This document shows positions 47,543 to 54,642 of a stretch of 64,000 nt of DNA, one piece after another. The stretch spans positions 66,786-130,785 of the forward strand of contig CAZQUN010000001.1 in NCBI GenBank assembly GCA_964596615.1. The letters run 5' to 3'. The stretch is from an uncultured Candidatus Saccharibacteria bacterium (lineage in GTDB: Bacteria; Patescibacteriota; Minisyncoccia; Portnoybacterales; UBA2143). How positions within the stretch are numbered: the stretch's first letter is position 1; the number at the start of each line of letters is the position of its first letter. The notes beneath the pieces were generated by a model. That model was not told where the DNA came from. It saw only the letters and a program-made list of their open reading frames with translations, and ran no database searches. Position numbers and translations under genes: made by a program.

Positions 47543-48142
47543 CTATTTCAAAGAATATCCAGGGATTTTAATTTCCCCGGTTGTGATTTTTTGCAATGTT
47601 TTTGGGAATAAAATATGCTCTTGTTTTAAAACCCGGGCTGCCAAACTTTCTGGTGTATCATTTTTTTCAACCGGAACCCGAACTTGGGCAATAACCGGTC
47701 CGGTATCGTAGTCAGCATCAACAATATGAATTGAAACGCCAGTTTCCCTTTCTCCGGCTTTAAGAACCGCCTGATGAACCCTAATTCCATACATTCCGTC
47801 TCCGCCAAACTTGGGTAAAAGCGCTGGGTGAATATTTAAAATTGCCCCGTTATAGCGAGACAATATTTCCGGTCCGATTTTCTTCATATATCCAGCTAAA
47901 ACCACAATATCAACAGAATGTTTATTCAAGGCATCAATAATGGCCTGATCAAGATTTTGATGAGTCTTATTACTTAAATGAAAATAGGGGATATTTTCTT
48001 TTTTTGCTCTTTTAATTGCCCCTGAATCGCTGTTGTTACTAATGACAACAACCGGCTTTGCTTTCAAAGCCTCTGATTTGCAGGCATCAATAATCGCCTG
48101 CATATTACTTCCATTACCTGATGCTAAAAACCCAATTCTCAT
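47543..48142 (-). CDS. purN: Phosphoribosylglycinamide formyltransferase
   Basis: MRIGFLASGNGSNMQAIIDA; NIHPALLPKFGG; HIVDADYDTGPVIAQ. Confidence 0.85.
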   Translation of the reverse strand: MRIGFLASGNGSNMQAIIDACKSEALKAKPVVVISNNSDSGAIKRAKKENIPYFHLSNKTHQNLDQAIIDALNKHSVDIVVLAGYMKKIGPEILSRYNGAILNIHPALLPKFGGDGMYGIRVHQAVLKAGERETGVSIHIVDADYDTGPVIAQVRVPVEKNDTPESLAARVLKQEHILFPKTLQKITTGEIKIPGYSLK

Positions 48143-48281: not shown

Positions 48282-48629
48282 ATGAGAAAAGTAGTAATAG
48301 TTCTTTTTTTAGTCGCTGTTATGATTTTTATGACGGCGATAGGGGCGACGGCTCGCCCTGGTCACGGTCAGGCTCGCGGTCACGGTCCACGATGGCATGG
48401 ACACGGGCATGGTCCACGGTGGCCCCTTGTACCATTTGTGCCATGTCTTGTTTCGTGGCCCCATCGTGATTCACCTCCCCGTGACTATTCCGTACGGTAC
48501 GACCCAGCAGTGCCTGCCCGCGGCTGCTGGATCTGGGTTGAGAGTTACCGGATTCCAGGACATTGGAATCGTCACGGTCATTGGGTCAACGAGCTCCGAG
48601 TGGGGGAATGGAAAAGGTGTCCCCCATAA
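48282..48629 (+). CDS. GC-rich small secreted His/Arg/Trp/Pro-rich protein (115 aa) with HGPRW-type repeats
   Basis: Strong SD AAAGGAGAGAGAA-ATG; signal peptide; ~60% GC body in a ~33% GC genome; strong terminator follows. Confidence 0.5.
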   Translation: MRKVVIVLFLVAVMIFMTAIGATARPGHGQARGHGPRWHGHGHGPRWPLVPFVPCLVSWPHRDSPPRDYSVRYDPAVPARGCWIWVESYRIPGHWNRHGHWVNELRVGEWKRCPP

Positions 48630-48644
48630 AAATAAACCCTTTCC

Positions 48645-48682
48645 GGCCAGCTCTATAAATGTATAGATCTGGCCATTTTTTA
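48645..48682. terminator. Rho-independent terminator (bidirectional)
   Basis: GGCCAGcTCTATAaatgTATAGAtCTGGCC hairpin followed by TTTTTT. Confidence 0.75.
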
Positions 48683-48701
48683 TTATGGCTCGTATTTGAC
48701 A

Positions 48702-49319
48702 TTATCCATTAATATCATTTAGAGCAATTTCGGCAACCTCCTCAGAGACTCCAAATATCTTTGACATTAAGACTGCTAGGTAGGAATCTAATGTCTTTTT
48801 GTCTATTTCCTCTAGTTTCTTGGATAAAGCAAGCTTATCTTTCTCTTTTAGTATTTTGTTTTTTCTAGACGCCAATATATCTCTTGGCACTAGCAAATAG
48901 TTAGCAAATTTATTTGCTTGTGTTTCCAAATAACTATACTGTTTTTCTGGAATTTCTCGGTAAAGCCTGTAAAAATCGATTGGATTTCTAATGTTAAGAC
49001 CCTTATAGAATTCTTTATGCAAAACAAAATGGCCCACTTCATGAGCCAGTGAAAATCTCAAACGATTCTGAAAACGATCGCTTAAAAACCTGCCTTTATC
49101 GACGTAGATGGATTTCCAGTTTGAAGTGATAAGAGCGTCAACATCAAAACTTTTCTGCAGTCCTGACTTGGGAATAAGGTCTATTTCTAGCTTTATATCA
49201 ATAATACTTTCTATATCAACTGGCACAGACCCATCCCAGAATTTTTCCCTAAATAAATCTGCTTTCTTTTTTACGACTAAATTATCTAAAAAGGGAACTA
49301 CTATCTTTCTGTAATCCAT
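48702..49319 (-). CDS. ImmA/IrrE family zinc metallopeptidase (COG2856-like)
   Basis: HEVGHFVLH HExxH motif; directly downstream of an XRE HTH gene. Confidence 0.7.
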   Translation of the reverse strand: MDYRKIVVPFLDNLVVKKKADLFREKFWDGSVPVDIESIIDIKLEIDLIPKSGLQKSFDVDALITSNWKSIYVDKGRFLSDRFQNRLRFSLAHEVGHFVLHKEFYKGLNIRNPIDFYRLYREIPEKQYSYLETQANKFANYLLVPRDILASRKNKILKEKDKLALSKKLEEIDKKTLDSYLAVLMSKIFGVSEEVAEIALNDING

Positions 49320-49320
49320 T

Positions 49321-49692
49321 TCAACTACCCCTGATTAATTCTATTAATTTATCTATTTCTTCCTTGGTCGGTTTTTTATTCCGAACAGTCCTAAAAAAAG
49401 CGGGTAGGTACTCAACCGCATTTTTTTGAGATAAGATATCCCGAGGAATAATGCCTTGAGCCACTTTAGCCTGATCTATAAGCTCCCCGGTTTTATTCTG
49501 GGAGAGTCCTAAAGTTTTTGCCCATTTTCGCAAGATTCTTTCATCAGACGGAGGAGAAATAATTCCTCTTTCTATTTTACTCCAATTACTTGGATCATAA
49601 TCTATTAACCGACACATCTTTCTTAGGGTTAGTCCTCTTTGAATCCTCATCTCTTTTAAGTTTTTACCAAATTTTTTAAGGTTTTTGTACAT
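49321..49692 (-). CDS. XRE-family helix-turn-helix transcriptional regulator
   Basis: LKEMRIQRGLTLRKMCRLIDYDPSNWSKIERG matches the HTH_3 pattern. Confidence 0.75.
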   Translation of the reverse strand: MYKNLKKFGKNLKEMRIQRGLTLRKMCRLIDYDPSNWSKIERGIISPPSDERILRKWAKTLGLSQNKTGELIDQAKVAQGIIPRDILSQKNAVEYLPAFFRTVRNKKPTKEEIDKLIELIRGS

Positions 49693-49719
49693 AATATTAG
49701 AGATAATTATTTATTCTCC

Positions 49720-49739
49720 TGTGGTATTATCCTACCACA
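49720..49739. promoter_or_regulatory. Operator-like palindrome TGTGGTA-ttatcc-TACCACA overlapping the XRE gene -10 region
   Basis: Seen directly; 7-bp perfect arms. Confidence 0.4.
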
Positions 49740-49767
49740 ATAATATGTTGGATGTCAAATAAACATC

Positions 49768-49776
49768 TGTGGATAA
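49768..49776 (-). promoter_or_regulatory. DnaA-box-like 9-mer, 9 nt upstream of the TTGACA -35 of the XRE gene
   Basis: The minus strand reads TTATCCACAgatgtttatTTGACA. Confidence 0.35.
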
Positions 49777-49962
49777 ATTCTACGGTTCGTATCTGATATT
49801 ATCTCCCAAAACAACATCGGAGCTAATAAGCTGCAAGGGCTGAGCACTACCATACCGGAAAAGGATATGGTCCAATTCTCCCCGACTGCCGGTAAAGAAC
49901 TTAATATTCTTCCAGTCGCCAACCGCCGGCGTTGTGCTGACATTGTCTTTTGAATTTTATTG

Positions 49963-51453
49963 TTAAATCTGAACTATTTCGTCCATTTTCGTCTGTAAGA
50001 AATTGTTAATTATCTCGTCCCTATTTCTATCAAGAACAGCATTAAGCAAGACAATTATATCTTTGTCCGTCAAAACAAATACATAAACGCTCCTATTGAT
50101 AACAAAATCTCTACAAGTTTCCAAAGCTCTTTTTTTATTTTTGATACCCCTACACACAATATACCCGATGGTAGATTCGCGGTTATTAAATCTGCCATTC
50201 ATTTGGTCATACTCAGGGTTATTTATGTCGTGACTATAATTCTTACATTCAAACAATATCTTAGCGCAGAATAATCTGCCATAATTAGATAGCCGCGAGA
50301 AAAAACCCCTATCGCTTGAATTATGAAAAGTAATGTCTATTCTTTTTCTGCCTTGGTTTTGGGGGTCTTCCTTTTTAGGACCGCATAAGTAATTACTTGA
50401 ACTGGGGTCATTAAAAATCGTATTTAAACAATCTAGAATATGTTCGTGATAATCGTCAGCATCTTGATTTCCGGGTTTTATTTTTTGAAACATTTTTATT
50501 TTCTGAGTTATAGACTCTTGTATCTCATTTTTTCTTCTTTGCTTCTTTATAATATCTTCGTTTCCAACAGTATTTAAAGCAACCTTGCTCTTTTTGTTCT
50601 TATATTCTTTTAGTAAAGTTGGACGGTCCTTAATATAATCAAACACTAGTTCCCGTGACAGATTATACCGCCCATCTTTTTTAAGAGTCTTCTTGTATGG
50701 TTTAGCTATGCTTTTGTCTTTAAGAGTCCGACATAAAGCAGTTCTCAAATCATAATGTCTGGCTTGCTCAAACTCCAGTATTCCTTTGTTGTAAAAGTCA
50801 GCATAATTTATTGAGATATGTCTTCTTAATACCCTTTTAGGCACTAGCAACATCTTTTTACCTTCAACCACCAATAATCTTTCTTGGTTTTTCTGAAGAA
50901 AATCCCTTTTAGACTCATCCCAAAATATCTTGGTCTGAGTTTCTGCCATATCAATACCATATAAATCACATTGTTGTTGGGTATACTTAATTAAATCTAA
51001 TCTAATTATGTTCGTTACAATATCAGATACATTATCATTTCCGATATTCTCTATATGTAACGCGGTATCTTCAAGGTCGTTTAAATAACCAGACTTAACC
51101 GCCTTACTCTCTTTTAATTTACGGTAAATAGCTCTTGATTTTTTTCTGCCAATAGATTTTCCATCCTTTGTCTTGCGACCATAACCCAGTCCAGTTTCGC
51201 TAGGTTCGTGTAAATTATCTAATAAATCTAAAGCTTTATCCCTATTGCCCTTACGGATATAATTTATCAATCTTTCAAAAACAGATTGTATCTTTTGATA
51301 GCAATCCACAGAAAAATCATCATCTCCGCATCTTATAGCCCAAGGATCAATAAATAGAGGCGTATCCTTTTTGATAAAGCAATCAAAAAAATCCAAATCA
51401 TACTGGGTTTTTCCTAATTCAAAATATTCGGAAATAGTCTTTTTCATTTTCAT
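49963..51453 (-). CDS. Hypothetical protein with C-terminal PD-(D/E)xK nuclease-like motif (restriction-endonuclease-like; possible defense protein)
   Basis: RIDITF ... LFECKNY (D...ExK arrangement); the 350-aa N-terminal domain has no recognisable motif. Confidence 0.35.
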   Translation of the reverse strand: MKMKKTISEYFELGKTQYDLDFFDCFIKKDTPLFIDPWAIRCGDDDFSVDCYQKIQSVFERLINYIRKGNRDKALDLLDNLHEPSETGLGYGRKTKDGKSIGRKKSRAIYRKLKESKAVKSGYLNDLEDTALHIENIGNDNVSDIVTNIIRLDLIKYTQQQCDLYGIDMAETQTKIFWDESKRDFLQKNQERLLVVEGKKMLLVPKRVLRRHISINYADFYNKGILEFEQARHYDLRTALCRTLKDKSIAKPYKKTLKKDGRYNLSRELVFDYIKDRPTLLKEYKNKKSKVALNTVGNEDIIKKQRRKNEIQESITQKIKMFQKIKPGNQDADDYHEHILDCLNTIFNDPSSSNYLCGPKKEDPQNQGRKRIDITFHNSSDRGFFSRLSNYGRLFCAKILFECKNYSHDINNPEYDQMNGRFNNRESTIGYIVCRGIKNKKRALETCRDFVINRSVYVFVLTDKDIIVLLNAVLDRNRDEIINNFLQTKMDEIVQI

Positions 51454-51455
51454 AA

Positions 51456-51854
51456 TCAGGGCAACGTCTCACAAGCCGACCCGTCTTTGTCTCGGTCTAG
51501 CCCGTGAACATCGTTAGATATTCCACCACAATACTCGTAGACCCCTTGGGCTTGTCTGTGGGTAGAGAAATCATCGCAGTTGTAGGCATTGTAAGAACAA
51601 GTATATTTCGGGGTTGGCTCGGGTTCTTTCTTAAAAATCTCGTCAAGCGTAGGTTTGGATTCAACTGGCTCTTGTTCTTCTTCTTTTAATTGTTCTGAAT
51701 CGGTTGGCTGTTCTAAATCAGCTGGTTGTTCTAACCTAGTATTAACCGACTGGATAATGTTTGCTTCCTGATTGTTCTTTTCATCACTACCAGAAAAAGC
51801 GATGATTAGGATAATCACCATTACTCCTCCAGCGATGTAAAGATATTTTTTCAT
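51456..51854 (-). CDS. Secreted Excalibur calcium-binding domain protein
   Basis: Signal/TM; C-terminal CDDFSTHRQAQ...GLDRDKDGSACE matches the Excalibur DxDxDGxxCE motif. Confidence 0.65.
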   Translation of the reverse strand: MKKYLYIAGGVMVIILIIAFSGSDEKNNQEANIIQSVNTRLEQPADLEQPTDSEQLKEEEQEPVESKPTLDEIFKKEPEPTPKYTCSYNAYNCDDFSTHRQAQGVYEYCGGISNDVHGLDRDKDGSACETLP

Positions 51855-51860
51855 ATTTTT

Positions 51861-52454
51861 TTATTCAATATCATCAATGTTATATCCAGCCGCCAAACAA
51901 TGGTCTTTAGTCATTTGTATTAAGCCATCCCAGCTATTTAGGTTTCCATCAATGTATTGTATTTCATTTCTGTATTTGCCGTATTTTGATTTTAAAAGAT
52001 TAACCTCGCCTATAAACATAAAATAAGCATTCTCTCGAGTAGTGCGTGCTTTAATGATACTTGGACAAAGTTGCTTTGGAGAATTAAGAACAGCCCCAAG
52101 CAAAAGTTCTCCTAATTCTTCAACATCATCGGTTGCTAATTTATATTCGGTCAAAATAGTATCGTTATCCTTTTGGGGTTGTATATAGACAGGTTTTTCT
52201 ATGATTTTTTCTTGTGGTAGCTGTTGTTTAAGTGTTTCTATTTCCTGTTTTAATGCTTCTATTGTATCTTGAGTAGTCGTGCCAGATTCATCGGACGTTT
52301 CTTGTTGATTAGGTAGTATTTGAGCTTTCTGATGTTGCCAATCACTATATTTGCCAAACCCATAAGAAAAAACTAAGCCGACACCGATGACAAGTAAGCC
52401 GACTTTTAACCATTCCTTTCTTAGGAATTCTATAATTTTGTCTTTTTCTTCCAT
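51861..52454 (-). CDS. Hypothetical membrane-anchored protein with coiled-coil
   Basis: N-terminal TM; QQ/EE-rich coiled coil. Confidence 0.35.
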   Translation of the reverse strand: MEEKDKIIEFLRKEWLKVGLLVIGVGLVFSYGFGKYSDWQHQKAQILPNQQETSDESGTTTQDTIEALKQEIETLKQQLPQEKIIEKPVYIQPQKDNDTILTEYKLATDDVEELGELLLGAVLNSPKQLCPSIIKARTTRENAYFMFIGEVNLLKSKYGKYRNEIQYIDGNLNSWDGLIQMTKDHCLAAGYNIDDIE

Positions 52455-52835
52455 ATTTTTATTATACTGACTATTTCTATAAAATCAACCCTGACAGATA
52501 GATGGATATTCAACAGAGATTAGATAGTAATCTTTTTAAAAATAAAAACCCAATAGGCCGTAAACTATTGAGTAAAAAGTTCTTTTCCTAGCCAGTTGTC
52601 TAATAGTTCCCAGATAATACTTGGATTAGCATAGCACCATCATCTCCTTTGTATACTTTAATTTAGGAATCCGAGAAAATCAGGTTCTCTAGGGTTTCCG
52701 AAGATTTACATATCTCCCCATAGAAACTGCAAGGGCTTGGGGCGTGAACTAGCCGAGCCTCATTTACAGCAACTGGCTAGGAAAATAGCTAGCGTATTTA
52801 GTTTAATTCTTTTATTTTATTTTGTCAAATCATCA

Positions 52836-53084
52836 TCAAGAGAACCCGATCCCATATCCTAAAAACCCGGCTAGGGCTGATTTGGAGATTTGTTTGATGC
52901 TCTTGTTATACCAAACCAGAGAAATTCCGCCCAGAAGTCCCAGCACAATAATTGCCATAAAGTGAAAAGGATATTCCAAATCCGGCAACTCGCGATAAAG
53001 TATCCATCCCCAAAGCAAACCGCCCAAACCAAATCCAATAATATTGATTAATAAATATTTTTTAAAAGATATATTCTCAAACAT
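52836..53084 (-). CDS. Small 2-TM membrane protein (82 aa)
   Basis: Strong SD (GGAGG) upstream; Gly-zipper-like GFGLGGLLWG. Confidence 0.45.
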   Translation of the reverse strand: MFENISFKKYLLINIIGFGLGGLLWGWILYRELPDLEYPFHFMAIIVLGLLGGISLVWYNKSIKQISKSALAGFLGYGIGFS

Positions 53085-53192
53085 AAAAATTCCTCCTTGT
53101 TTCTATTTTACCCCAAAAGCCAAACCAAACAAACAAACTTATTAACAACTCAACTATCGACATTCAATATCAATATTTTTGAAGAATAACCC

Positions 53193-53381
53193 TTGACGTT
53201 TATAATGCCTCGTGGTAGTATAAAGAGGCAACCCGCCAAAATGATACCCCAATTGGGTATCGTCTCGCGAAGTAGTGGACATCCTAGACAGCCATTATAC
53301 TGTCGCCTCCGTGCCCTAAAGATGGGATATAGCGGAGAATGGACCCACACGAAGAACGAGTGAGGCGGGTTTCTTCGTTTC
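53193..53381 (+). ncRNA. Candidate small RNA unit 1 (promoter TTGACG-17-TAGTAT; ~155 nt; terminator hairpin CGAAGAAC.../GTTTCTTCG)
   Basis: Promoter and terminator seen directly; no credible ORF (only a 16-codon frame); GC-enriched. Confidence 0.3.
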
Positions 53382-53437
53382 CTAAATTGTAGTTATGGGG
53401 TTATAGGGATATGGATAAGAGATATGCCTAAAAACTC

Positions 53438-53631
53438 TTGACAAGTTTGTTTGTATATGATACGATATTAACAATATTAGCGGCCTGCCGAAAAAAGACG
53501 ACCCCCAGTGTCTTCGGAGTAGAGGCCAGTATTACAGGGGTGATTGGAAGGAATAAAACCGCTCCCCTTCCGAAAAATTGTACTTGAGGCGGAACCCCCC
53601 GGGCGAAATAACAGTAACTCGGGGGTTTTTT
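53438..53631 (+). ncRNA. Candidate small RNA unit 2 (promoter TTGACA-17-TACGAT; ~160 nt; strong terminator CCCCCGGG...CTCGGGGG + U6)
   Basis: No ATG anywhere in the transcript; internal hairpins (GGCCTGCC...GGCCAG; GGAAGG...CCTTCC); followed by a conserved 45-nt block shared with unit 1. Confidence 0.45.
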
Positions 53632-53729
53632 CGCTTCCCAAATTGTAGCTGTGGAGTTATAGGTATATGGATGACAATCATAGCGACCCCGAACAATTCT
53701 ATCCCAAAACCAATAATCCCCCTAAAAAC

Positions 53730-53738
53730 TTATCCACA
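53730..53738 (+). promoter_or_regulatory. DnaA-box-like 9-mer adjacent to a bidirectional terminator
   Basis: TTATCCACA on the plus strand; a GCCGC-tggg-GCGG hairpin + T6 follows at 53741..53767. Confidence 0.3.
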
Positions 53739-53783
53739 ATAAAAAAGCCGCTGGGGCGGTTTTTTACTTACGCCACCAGCGGG

Positions 53784-53948
53784 TTAAGAATTTTGTTCCC
53801 TACTTTGAATATAATCCCATTTTATCCTGTCCTCTCGTATTTCTCTTTCCACGGGATCATTGTCTTCAATTGTCCGAGAATCGGCCCCGCATTCTGGACA
53901 GGATTCTCCCCTGCTAATCCTCCGGTAACCACATATTGGACAATCCAT
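53784..53948 (-). CDS. 54-aa double-CxxC zinc-ribbon protein (MDCPICGYRRISRGESCPECGADSRT...). Not in ORF track
   Basis: Hand translation; SD AAGGAGGG 6 nt upstream; promoter TTGACA-16-TAATAT at 54014..53988; terminator at 53741..53767. Confidence 0.55.
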   Translation of the reverse strand: MDCPICGYRRISRGESCPECGADSRTIEDNDPVEREIREDRIKWDYIQSREQNS

Positions 53949-54011
53949 CTTATCCCTCCTTCTTTGTAAATTCGCTTTTTTTAAGAATATTATCAGAAAA
54001 CGTGCTTATGT

Positions 54012-54044
54012 CAAACCAAAAAGGACCCATCCGTAATGGGCCCC
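54012..54044 (-). terminator. Rho-independent terminator of the 54094..54723 gene
   Basis: The minus strand reads GGGCCCATTACGGATGGGTCC + TTTTT. Confidence 0.55.
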
Positions 54045-54093
54045 GCGGCTCAGAAGAAGAATTGCAACCTCCATTTGTGCCTCCTGTTGAGAT

Positions 54094-54642
54094 TTAGTTG
54101 AAAGTGCTTGCTGGGATATGTGATGAAAGAGTCATGCCGCCTGTTTTTTCCATCGTTGGTTCGGTTTCCTTTTTTTCTTTTTTTGGTCCTGCTTTTGGTT
54201 TAGATTCAGGCAAGGGTTTAACTTCGGGAATTGGCCAATGGCATCTTGAGCAGATCATGCTCGTCTTTGCAAAGGAACCGGTATCTGTTACATATCTCCC
54301 ATTGACAAGAATGATCCTCTCGAATTCTCGACTTTTACCATTAACTCCCTCTTTGAGATGTTCGTGTTGCACTAATATACCATTCCGATAAAGCGCCCCT
54401 ACCCGATGAATGCCATTTTCGCTCTTTGTATTTTTAATCATGCAAAATTCGGAGGCAACCCAACGTTTTTTGGGCGTAATTACTTGAACGATTCCTGACC
54501 AAACATGAGGCCATTTAACCAGCTTTTGCGGATCAAACTTGCCTTCCCAATCTTTCTCCTTCGGAGGCTCTTCTGCTAACGCCACCACCCCCATTAAGAA
54601 CAAGGTGGCTACAACAATCAATATGATTCTTTTCTTTTTCAT
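54094..54642 (-). CDS. Secreted hypothetical protein (start trimmed to MKKKRIILIVV)
   Basis: SD GAGAGGTGAAGAG before the internal Met; signal peptide; two Cys pairs. Confidence 0.45.
   Translation of the reverse strand: MKKKRIILIVVATLFLMGVVALAEEPPKEKDWEGKFDPQKLVKWPHVWSGIVQVITPKKRWVASEFCMIKNTKSENGIHRVGALYRNGILVQHEHLKEGVNGKSREFERIILVNGRYVTDTGSFAKTSMICSRCHWPIPEVKPLPESKPKAGPKKEKKETEPTMEKTGGMTLSSHIPASTFN

Follow-up and report, generated by a model that had tools for sequence, protein, structure and literature searches.

Positions 48702-53084 of the window, by which we mean the whole 64-kb stretch of DNA analysed here, carry a three-gene block encoding a predicted nuclease of the DUF8370 family and, next to it, a gene pair for an XRE-family repressor and an ImmA-type Zn-metallopeptidase. 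We consider it reasonably probable that these are two unrelated things standing side by side by accident: a block with a stand-alone defence nuclease that was brought in by replacement, and a conserved XRE-ImmA module. A first-pass annotation, made from the sequence alone, had read the region as one mobile islet with att-like repeats and a prophage-type switch. What survives of it is a defence-type nuclease in a non-core indel, but not the mobile islet, the att repeats or the prophage switch.

All coordinates are positions within the window. The open reading frame (ORF) list places every credible gene at 48702-53084 on the minus strand, and the five ORFs named in the first-pass annotation lie where it had put them. 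In order of transcription the region consists of an 82-aa ORF (52836-53084), a 0.4-kb leader, a 197-aa transmembrane (TM) coiled-coil protein (51861-52454; the first gene of the three-gene operon), a 132-aa Excalibur protein (51456-51854), the 496-aa DUF8370 protein, an apparently non-coding gap of 270 nt, the XRE repressor (123 aa, 49321-49692) and ImmA (205 aa, 48702-49319). The three upstream genes share one orientation and are closely packed, with 6 nt between the TM coiled-coil and Excalibur genes and 2 nt between the Excalibur and DUF8370 genes. A 62-aa ORF at 49755-49943, in a frame different from that of the gene remnant described below, is probably no gene. The closest relatives of the window proteins are annotated as Portnoybacteria, Paceibacter, Nealsonbacteria or Parcubacteria, and the host genome belongs to the candidate phyla radiation (CPR)/Parcubacteria.

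Apparent replacement of two ancestral genes by the nuclease block

With PurN (47543-48142) as an anchor we found the closest syntenic relative of the region, L016 (L001-L035 are our labels for the comparison loci). From PurN onward both have a DeoR-type regulator, a sigma factor, DUF5667 and a 1207-aa protein in the same order. Upstream, L016 has a 201-aa gene, a 1125-aa LTD/beta-helix gene and a Y1_Tnp (IS200-like) gene that leads to PurN, and pieces of the first two are kept in the window. Of the 201-aa gene the initial 221 nt are found at 53074-52854, with 78% nucleotide identity to L016; the 82-aa ORF equals its first 77 codons (83% amino acid identity to L016:1645-1877) and is a truncated 5' piece of this ancestral membrane-protein gene. 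The last 171 nt of the 1125-aa gene (56 codons and the stop) remain at 49947-49777 on the minus strand, with 71% nucleotide identity to L016:5462-5632 and 68% amino acid identity over 56 aa. This pseudogene remnant has the same stop as L016, no start codon and an in-frame stop upstream.

Homology to L016 ends at 49947 and resumes at 52854, with breakpoints at about 49947/49948 and 52853/52854. The 2.9-kb block between them (49948-52853), which has no counterpart in L016 and comprises the three genes and the 0.4-kb leader, stands where L016 has about 3.6 kb. Since the block has the 5' end of one gene on one side and the 3' end of another on the other, it is the window that shows the derived state. 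The alignments indicate that one ancestral gene lost its 3' part to the block and the next gene nearly its whole length, and that this was an exchange by illegitimate recombination and not a site-specific integration. The block is therefore non-core, as had been proposed, with other genes at its place in L016 and fragments of those genes at its edges in the window. The proposal had also joined the block and the XRE-ImmA pair in one unit. Since an ancestral remnant sits between the nuclease gene and XRE, these did not arrive together. In L016-L019 the place of XRE-ImmA, plus a His/Pro-rich ORF on the opposite strand, is taken by Y1_Tnp.

A mobile islet is not supported

The att-like repeat of the first-pass annotation, CTGCAAGGGCT, does occur twice, although at 49831-49841 and 52727-52737 (plus strand) and not at 49833 and 52724. 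Copy 1 lies inside the ancestral gene remnant, 107 bp outside one real breakpoint, and copy 2 inside the imported leader, 117 bp inside the other. Exact direct pairs of 11-mers number 13 in the 5.6 kb from 48600 to 54200, against 12.6 +/- 5.8 in sequences simulated with a first-order Markov model, so the pair is a chance repeat and, off the junctions as it is, does not bracket the block.

These results bear on the view that 48702-52781 is the remnant of a prophage or of an integrative and conjugative element (ICE), with XRE-ImmA as its immunity switch and CTGCAAGGGCT as att repeats. Pairs of a helix-turn-helix (HTH) protein and an M78 peptidase are classic ImmR/ImmA modules (PMC13228613), PHROG families match XRE, ImmA and the 496-aa protein, and the three-gene block is an indel relative to L016. 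Against this, the ORF list and the Pfam and PHROG scans hold no integrase, recombinase, phage, structural or replication gene in or beside the region. The 496-aa protein had no tblastn match in 50,697 phage records and no confirmed relative in an IMG/VR scan, so that prophage carriage of DUF8370 is unsupported. The XRE-ImmA pair is conserved amid housekeeping genes, as described below, and base composition is not distinct, with gene GC of 33-42% against 36.5% for the window. We regard a prophage or ICE remnant as very improbable; a single mobile islet fails on the chance repeat, the missing mobility genes and the 171-nt ancestral remnant that splits the two pieces.

We also tried base composition as a mark of foreign origin and rejected the argument, since both GC and GC3 (GC at third codon positions) lie within the spread of the window.

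A DUF8370 protein with a predicted restriction-type cleavage domain

The 496-aa protein is a member of DUF8370 (PF28123), the Pfam label precomputed for P0001, which is identical to it, and for almost all listed homologs; our own Pfam scan, run with a copy that lacks the PF28123 model, gave no match to it. The PADLOC comparison suggested with the first-pass annotation assigns it to the phage-defence candidate family PDC-M36A (PDLC04597, E 4.3e-42; PDLC04598, E 1.8e-8), and among PHROGs it matches the unannotated family phrog_27295 (E 1e-82). PDC-M36 is one of 145 phage-defence candidates from a 'guilt-by-embedding' screen, all embedded in bacteriophage exclusion (BREX), DISARM or Type I restriction-modification loci (bioRxiv 10.1101/2024.01.29.577857), and is defined in the supplement of that study as the three-gene cassette FAM_01399>>FAM_00303>>FAM_00303. 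The complete cassette is not present in the window, where none of the four neighbouring proteins (0/4) matches any PDC-M36 model and only the A component is found. Full-text literature searches for 'PDC-M36' and 'DUF8370' gave no match.

A profile search of 1.84 billion cluster representatives returned 4,926 family members at E <= 1e-3 and 1,106 at E <= 1e-30, mostly 475-500 aa long, with a dominant form of about 480 aa. In an alignment of 53 sequences (31-73% identity) 25 residues are invariant, and the window protein has all 25. They include D30, E83, D140, S143 and D144 in the N-terminal domain and D373, E402, C403, K404, N405, Q417 and R421 in the C-terminal part.

The C-terminal part (aa 301-496, 49963-50553) opens with a helical linker, followed from about aa 325 by a PD-(D/E)xK core of the alpha-beta-beta-beta-alpha-beta fold. 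The catalytic D373 lies on beta-2 (strand 370-378) and E402-C403-K404 on beta-3 (strand 398-404); both the fold and the D...ECK residues bear out the nuclease-like ending first ascribed to this protein. The best likeness of the domain is to restriction-enzyme cleavage domains, and a confident structural model predicts a restriction-type, FokI/Mrr-like cleavage domain. A profile of the family had no match below E 0.33 among PDB sequences. The N-terminal domain (aa 1-300, 50554-51453) is highly conserved, has many invariant acidic positions (D30, E83, D140 and D144) and contains a segment, GIGxDxISDxxTNIIR, that looks helix-hairpin-helix-like; we found no solved structural relative of it and detected no SRA-like or other known modified-base-binding fold. 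The protein has no signal peptide or TM segment, and no neighbour in the window has a methyltransferase domain.

The two parts also occur separately. On plasmids the N-terminal domain is found as stand-alone proteins of about 300 aa, and the C-terminal domain is found fused to Dcm methyltransferases with 35-41% identity. On the B. cereus plasmid NZ_CP023246.1 (372063-373751, L027), for example, a 562-aa annotated DNA cytosine methyltransferase ends in a domain 41% identical to the DUF8370 nuclease domain and has an AAA ATPase and a DUF559 protein as its neighbours. Another DUF8370 homolog, 43% identical, is encoded in L014 (Ga0209576_1000901), whose 11.7 kb hold only two table-11 ORFs of at least 80 aa; given this scarcity, its host probably uses a recoded stop codon, e.g. 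UGA as sense.

Genomic contexts of DUF8370 and a role in defence

We compared eight contexts of DUF8370 (L002, L003, L007, L008, L009, L024, L025 and the window). The neighbours are different in all eight, and the gene sits alone among them. An EcoRI-type methylase and three GmrSD-type genes adjoin it in L002, the only one of the eight contexts with an adjacent methylase and also the one locus returned by a scan of GTDB genomes. In L003 and L004 an upstream LexA is followed by NmeDI_C, HNH, AbiJ, GmrSD and AAA_15. L008 has a serine recombinase and Rep upstream, with DUF559 and MrcB_N-NucS adjoining as well, and the gene stands beside a PDDEXK_1 protein in L009 and a 772-aa protein with no family match in L007. 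A B. mycoides plasmid carries it between a Gabija-like pair (TOPRIM and UvrD-helicase) and an integrase, followed by McrBC. In Yersinia enterocolitica it is found in a P4-like satellite as the only cargo between Ogr/Delta and the integrase, a position that resembles the psu-int anti-phage hotspot of P4 satellites (PMC9122126). The TM coiled-coil, Excalibur, XRE and ImmA proteins of the window have no homolog in the close DUF8370 loci.

Neighbours that vary in this way, with none common to the window and the other loci, are what one would expect of a defence gene that is self-sufficient and moves horizontally. Together with the PDC-M36A assignment, the homologs in defence islands and in a P4-like satellite uphold the earlier call of a defence-like nuclease, and it is probable that DUF8370 is an anti-phage or anti-mobile-element DNA endonuclease that acts alone. 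A role outside immunity, whether as a selfish or addictive nuclease, a toxin-like or plasmid-maintenance protein, or a repair or recombination enzyme, seems unlikely to us. Such a role would fit the N-domain-only homologs found on small plasmids beside toxin-antitoxin modules, par and rep, as well as the lack of a methyltransferase partner in the window, and the defence role itself is argued from candidate status and context. Full-length homologs, however, recur in defence islands and in a satellite cargo position, and the nuclease domain is most like the cleavage domains of restriction enzymes.

Two sets of homologs lie next to regulators. The Acinetobacter schindleri plasmid p3AsACE (L028, NZ_CP015618.1 7791-9197) encodes a 304-aa N-domain-only homolog divergent from an HTH regulator and a 284-aa ImmA/IrrE protein, an arrangement classical for CapH/CapP; the N-domain is found on further small plasmids beside RelE/HTH modules, PemK modules or addiction genes. 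In L003, L004 and L005, all from one Parcubacteria lineage, a co-oriented LexA gene (LexA_DNA_bind plus Peptidase_S24) lies ~160 nt upstream of DUF8370, making this the second instance in which the family has a damage-responsive repressor as neighbour.

The other two proteins of the block

The 197-aa protein contains a single TM helix and a coiled coil. All its matches in Pfam, PADLOC and PHROG fall below threshold, and it has no homolog in the other loci. The 132-aa protein starts with a membrane anchor or signal, continues with an acidic linker and ends in an Excalibur Ca-binding motif. Its Excalibur call (PF05901) holds, at 22.9 bits against a gathering cut-off of 22 and with the DxDxDGxxCE motif as DRDKDGSACE, although the score is marginal. 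By tblastn it had no match in the other comparison loci except the identical contig L001. In the leader (52461-52573, minus strand) consensus scans alone predict a terminator-like hairpin (52573-52548) and then a promoter-like site with TTGATT, a 16-nt spacer and TATAAT (52488-52461). A PHROG match of the 197-aa protein to Rz-like spanins (E 2e-4) was dismissed as coiled-coil bias.

Because no other member of the DUF8370 family has these two proteins, we think that they are probably passengers. Alternatively, the three proteins might form a three-component system, either an envelope sensor with a nuclease or a secreted or competence-type module for handling DNA. The short gaps, the single promoter-like site upstream, the joint arrival of the three genes as one indel and the definition of PDC-M36 as a three-gene cassette all point that way, as does the occurrence of Excalibur domains on extracellular nucleases. 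Yet neither partner has a detectable homolog beside other DUF8370 genes or matches a PADLOC model at a meaningful score, and DUF8370 lacks a signal peptide or TM segment, which makes such a system rather unlikely.

XRE-ImmA appears to be a Parcubacteria-wide, autoregulated module

The XRE and ImmA calls of the first-pass annotation are sound (HTH_19, E 4e-11; Peptidase_M78, E 4e-9), and the XRE stop lies 1 nt from the ImmA start. XRE has an N-terminal HTH (HTH_19/HTH_31), matches PADLOC capH over its full length (E 2e-6) and is 57-73% identical to its orthologs in L021-L023; its C-terminal half includes a conserved LPAFFRTxRNKKPTKEEI... tail, in which the LPAFF-RT-RNKKP segment is strictly conserved. 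ImmA (PADLOC capP, E 8e-17) consists of nothing but the peptidase domain and, at its C-terminus, a helical tail of about 50 aa, and its HExxH (H93, E94, H97) and E132 are invariant in 24 homologs. More than 300 homologs of the peptidase were found; among the 120 listed, nearly all are full-length (184-233 aa, 51-79% identical), and all the named ones come from Parcubacteria lineages.

Six other contexts of the pair were compared (L021-L023 and L033-L035), from Parcubacteria DG_72, a 676-kb Nealsonbacteria chromosome and four others. An XRE gene of 121-151 aa lies directly upstream of the peptidase gene in all six, amid housekeeping neighbours in every case (def, yceG, rplJ/L; murB, hpf, secA; miaB-miaA, gatB, rplK, thrS), and DUF8370 or phage genes are attached in none (0/6). 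A literature search on Patescibacteria and ImmA/IrrE found nothing relevant. The pair had been taken for a prophage or ICE derepression module; the Parcubacteria-wide homologs, the housekeeping contexts and a common operator contradict this, and the comparison suggests instead a Parcubacteria-wide chromosomal, autoregulated repressor/protease module.

The operator is the palindrome TGTGGTAGGATAATACCACA at 49720-49739, already noticed at the XRE promoter in the first-pass annotation. It is perfect, with arms of 7 nt that are 100% complementary (TGTGGTA-N6-TACCACA), and overlaps the predicted extended -10 of a sigma-70-type promoter of XRE-ImmA (49729-49758, minus strand). This promoter, found by consensus scan, has TTGACA, an 18-nt spacer and TAGGAT, with TG before the second hexamer. 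TGTGGT-N8-ACCACA occurs exactly once per locus in the six XRE-ImmA loci and once in the window, and in 0/29 other loci compared. In all these loci it lies between the TTGACA -35 and the XRE start, over the extended -10 (TGGTAAAAT or TGGTAGGAT), and the position of TTGACA relative to the operator is identical in the six orthologous promoters. By chance, 12 specified bases would be expected about 0.001 times per 10-kb locus; the recurrence therefore points to a conserved autoregulatory operator, and XRE quite likely represses its own promoter.

The 64-kb window, including the leader of the nuclease operon, holds no second operator site with fewer than three mismatches, and we see no sign that the pair controls the nuclease operon. 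This matters for the possibility that XRE-ImmA is a CapH/CapP-type regulator of that operon, in which damage or phage single-stranded DNA (ssDNA) would activate ImmA, XRE would be cleaved and DUF8370 induced. The best PADLOC matches of the pair are capP and capH, CapP (7t5t) is the one relative that the peptidase has in the PDB, and the pair is adjacent to and co-oriented with the nuclease gene. The divergent arrangement on the Acinetobacter plasmid and the LexA genes upstream of DUF8370 in three loci can be added, as can the report that CapP and CapH control many immune operons (PMC13228613). But the pair lies downstream of the nuclease gene, neither upstream nor divergent, and its adjacency is secondary given the ancestral remnant between them. 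In the six other genomes the pair has no defence gene attached to it, none of the close DUF8370 loci carries the pair, and the peptidase is without the GAF domain that forms the ssDNA groove of CapP (PMC13228613). With the operator at the XRE promoter only, we find regulation of the nuclease by this pair improbable.

The first-pass annotation had also pointed out a DnaA-box 9-mer at the XRE promoter. The consensus box TTATCCACA is indeed present in a motif scan at 49768-49776 (minus strand), 9 nt upstream of the -35 and directly after the remnant stop codon, but it is not special to this place, as the window has seven, all intergenic. Of the orthologous promoters, those of L021 and L023 have a comparable box (TTATTCACA or TTATCCACA) on the upstream side of the -35, and those of L022 and L033-L035 have none. 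The seven sites (40823, 40842, 44785, 46104, 49768, 53730 and 59326) compare with 0.49 expected, and four of the seven have a promoter-like TTGACA or TATAAT no more than about 60 nt downstream. Because the degenerate TTWTNCACA adds only two sites, the exact form is selected; because GC skew is monotonic across 40-60 kb, the cluster is not origin-like. TTATCCACA looks like a promoter-proximal regulatory motif, bound by DnaA as a transcription factor or by another factor.

Neighbouring features

Upstream of the 82-aa ORF, 53150-53700 contains two consecutive non-coding units of ~200 nt, each with a promoter-like TTGAC(G/A) start and a GC-rich hairpin plus T-run end, and each followed by a 50-nt direct repeat (53367-53416 and 53623-53672, 86% identical). 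They have no Rfam match and may be lineage-specific small RNAs. A gathering-threshold Rfam search of the window returned two tRNAs and nothing else, and E-value searches of 49650-50000 and 52400-54150 gave no credible match (the top one, preQ1-II, scored 25 bits against a gathering score of 47).

On the other side of ImmA, a 115-aa ORF on the plus strand (48282-48629) has a signal peptide, His/Gly/Pro-rich repeats (HGHGPRW), no family match and a GC content of 55% against 36.5% for the window; it is the only likely plus-strand gene nearby. For the adjoining PurN just two close relatives in the CPR were found, at 83% and 78% identity, and its next matches, at ~70%, are from Desulfobacteraceae, Syntrophus, Methylococcaceae and Kiritimatiellae, a pattern that suggests horizontal acquisition of purN by this CPR lineage. 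In the relatives L016-L019 purN directly adjoins the Y1_Tnp (IS200-like) gene. Further away, at positions 1-40600, about 35 minus-strand ORFs follow one another end to end in a near-continuous 40-kb array with hardly any room between the genes.

Proposed mechanisms and their significance

If the nuclease is a defence protein, its N-terminal domain, with a helix-hairpin-helix-like DNA-binding element, may sense or bind a target in DNA such as a modified base, a DNA structure or a phage cue. This would then license non-specific FokI/Mrr-like cleavage by the C-terminal domain, as in Type IIS and Type IV enzymes. Dependence on modification is pure conjecture. For the XRE-ImmA module, the position and conservation of the operator suggest that XRE dimers bind TGTGGT-N8-ACCACA over the extended -10 and repress their own promoter. 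The analogy with CapP/CapH, IrrE/DdrO and ImmA/ImmR suggests that ImmA may respond to a stress signal by cleaving XRE, presumably at the C-terminal LPAFF|RT, near F101/R102; the LPAFF-RT-RNKKP segment is proposed as the cleavage region by this analogy only. We hold cleavage on a stress signal, and the nature of that signal, with less confidence than autoregulation.

Several observations weigh against a lone defence nuclease beside an unrelated module. The partner genes of the three-gene PDC-M36 cassette are missing here, and PDC-M36 has the status of a candidate (bioRxiv 10.1101/2024.01.29.577857). The N-terminal domain stands alone on small plasmids beside toxin-antitoxin and rep genes, so its role may not be to sense DNA for a nuclease. 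The HTH and ImmA/IrrE genes on p3AsACE and the LexA neighbours make a link with damage-responsive repressors possible. The stretch from the nuclease gene to XRE has no predicted terminator, so that read-through could couple the two, and the 2-nt and 6-nt spacings within the block could mean a genuine functional trio.

For the window itself, what we offer is mainly a correction: two elements that came together by accident had passed for an islet, and the repeat amounts to noise. For the two components it may reach further. DUF8370 is catalogued yet uncharacterised, and its contexts make it a single-gene anti-phage candidate, also in CPR bacteria, whose defence repertoire is poorly known. The strictly conserved operator is a possible handle on stress regulation in Parcubacteria, and a genome-wide search for it could define a regulon. 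It is tempting to go further and take DUF8370 as a new single-protein anti-phage nuclease, in which a sensor of new fold gates a FokI-like domain, and at the same time XRE-ImmA as the Parcubacteria counterpart of DdrO/PprI or LexA; we can offer this combination only tentatively, and doubt that all of it is right. The DUF8370 family spans CPR bacteria, Proteobacteria, Firmicutes and P4-like satellites. If the combination were true, XRE-ImmA would be the central stress-responsive or SOS-like switch in a major CPR lineage, with the DnaA box as a possible input.

Comparison with known systems

Within PDC-M36/DUF8370 the window protein is a full-length member with all the invariant residues. It differs from the described cassette in that the two FAM_00303 copies are absent, the host is a CPR bacterium and the DUF8370 gene shares its transcript with those of two small, unrelated envelope proteins. 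Its cleavage domain resembles those of Type IIS enzymes (FokI, and N.BspD6I with the R.BspD6I small subunit) and of the Mrr-like AF1548, although sequence identity is only 7-15%, and the recognition domains of FokI and BspD6I are unrelated to the DUF8370 N-terminal domain. Type II and IIS restriction-modification systems have a cognate methyltransferase alongside, whereas none stands beside DUF8370 in the window. From the Type IV enzymes MspJI and AspBHI the protein differs in that their SRA-like domain is not detected in its N-terminal domain.

The XRE-ImmA pair appears, from its sequence, to be closest to CapH/CapP but without the GAF domain. CapH/CapP is a repressor/peptidase pair associated with the cyclic-oligonucleotide-based anti-phage signalling system (CBASS; PMC13228613; bioRxiv 10.1101/2022.04.27.489752). 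Both pairs join an HTH repressor of ~120 aa, bearing a C-terminal tail, to an M78 peptidase with HExxH...E. CapH and CapP are the best PADLOC matches, CapP 7t5t_A is matched at the active site, and the Trp of the CapH W35 feature is conserved in the window-type HTH (DPSNWSKIERG). CapP, however, is about 290 aa long with a central HTH and a C-terminal GAF, and the 205-aa window peptidase has neither; it covers only positions 6-123 of the 242 of the capP profile and residues 89-147 of CapP 7t5t (291 aa). In CapP and IrrE the groove that senses ssDNA lies between the peptidase and the C-terminal GAF, and a cysteine-switch loop keeps CapP inactive (PMC13228613). No Cys is present in ImmA residues 98-131 (FVLHKEFYKGLNIRNPIDFYRLYREIPEKQYSYL), between HExxH and E132; this loop is not universal among CapP homologs. 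CapH/CapP is tied to an immune operon, unlike the XRE-ImmA pair in the six other genomes. In the window the pair does adjoin the DUF8370 operon, with its operator at its own promoter only and the remnant in between.

IrrE(PprI)/DdrO of Deinococcus is likewise a chromosomal, lineage-wide repressor/metallopeptidase system in which the repressor is autoregulated through a palindromic operator. The Parcubacteria pair differs from it by lacking GAF, by genes that are always adjacent and co-transcribed and by a Parcubacteria-specific operator, and a DNA-damage regulon for it is conjectural. With ImmR/ImmA of ICEBs1 and prophages it shares a minimal, peptidase-only M78 protein and the order repressor then peptidase, here with a 1-nt gap; unlike those modules it lies outside a mobile element, with no int/xis or phage genes nearby. 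What we describe here are members of catalogued but uncharacterised families, among which the N-terminal fold of DUF8370 and the Parcubacteria-wide operator are worth following up.

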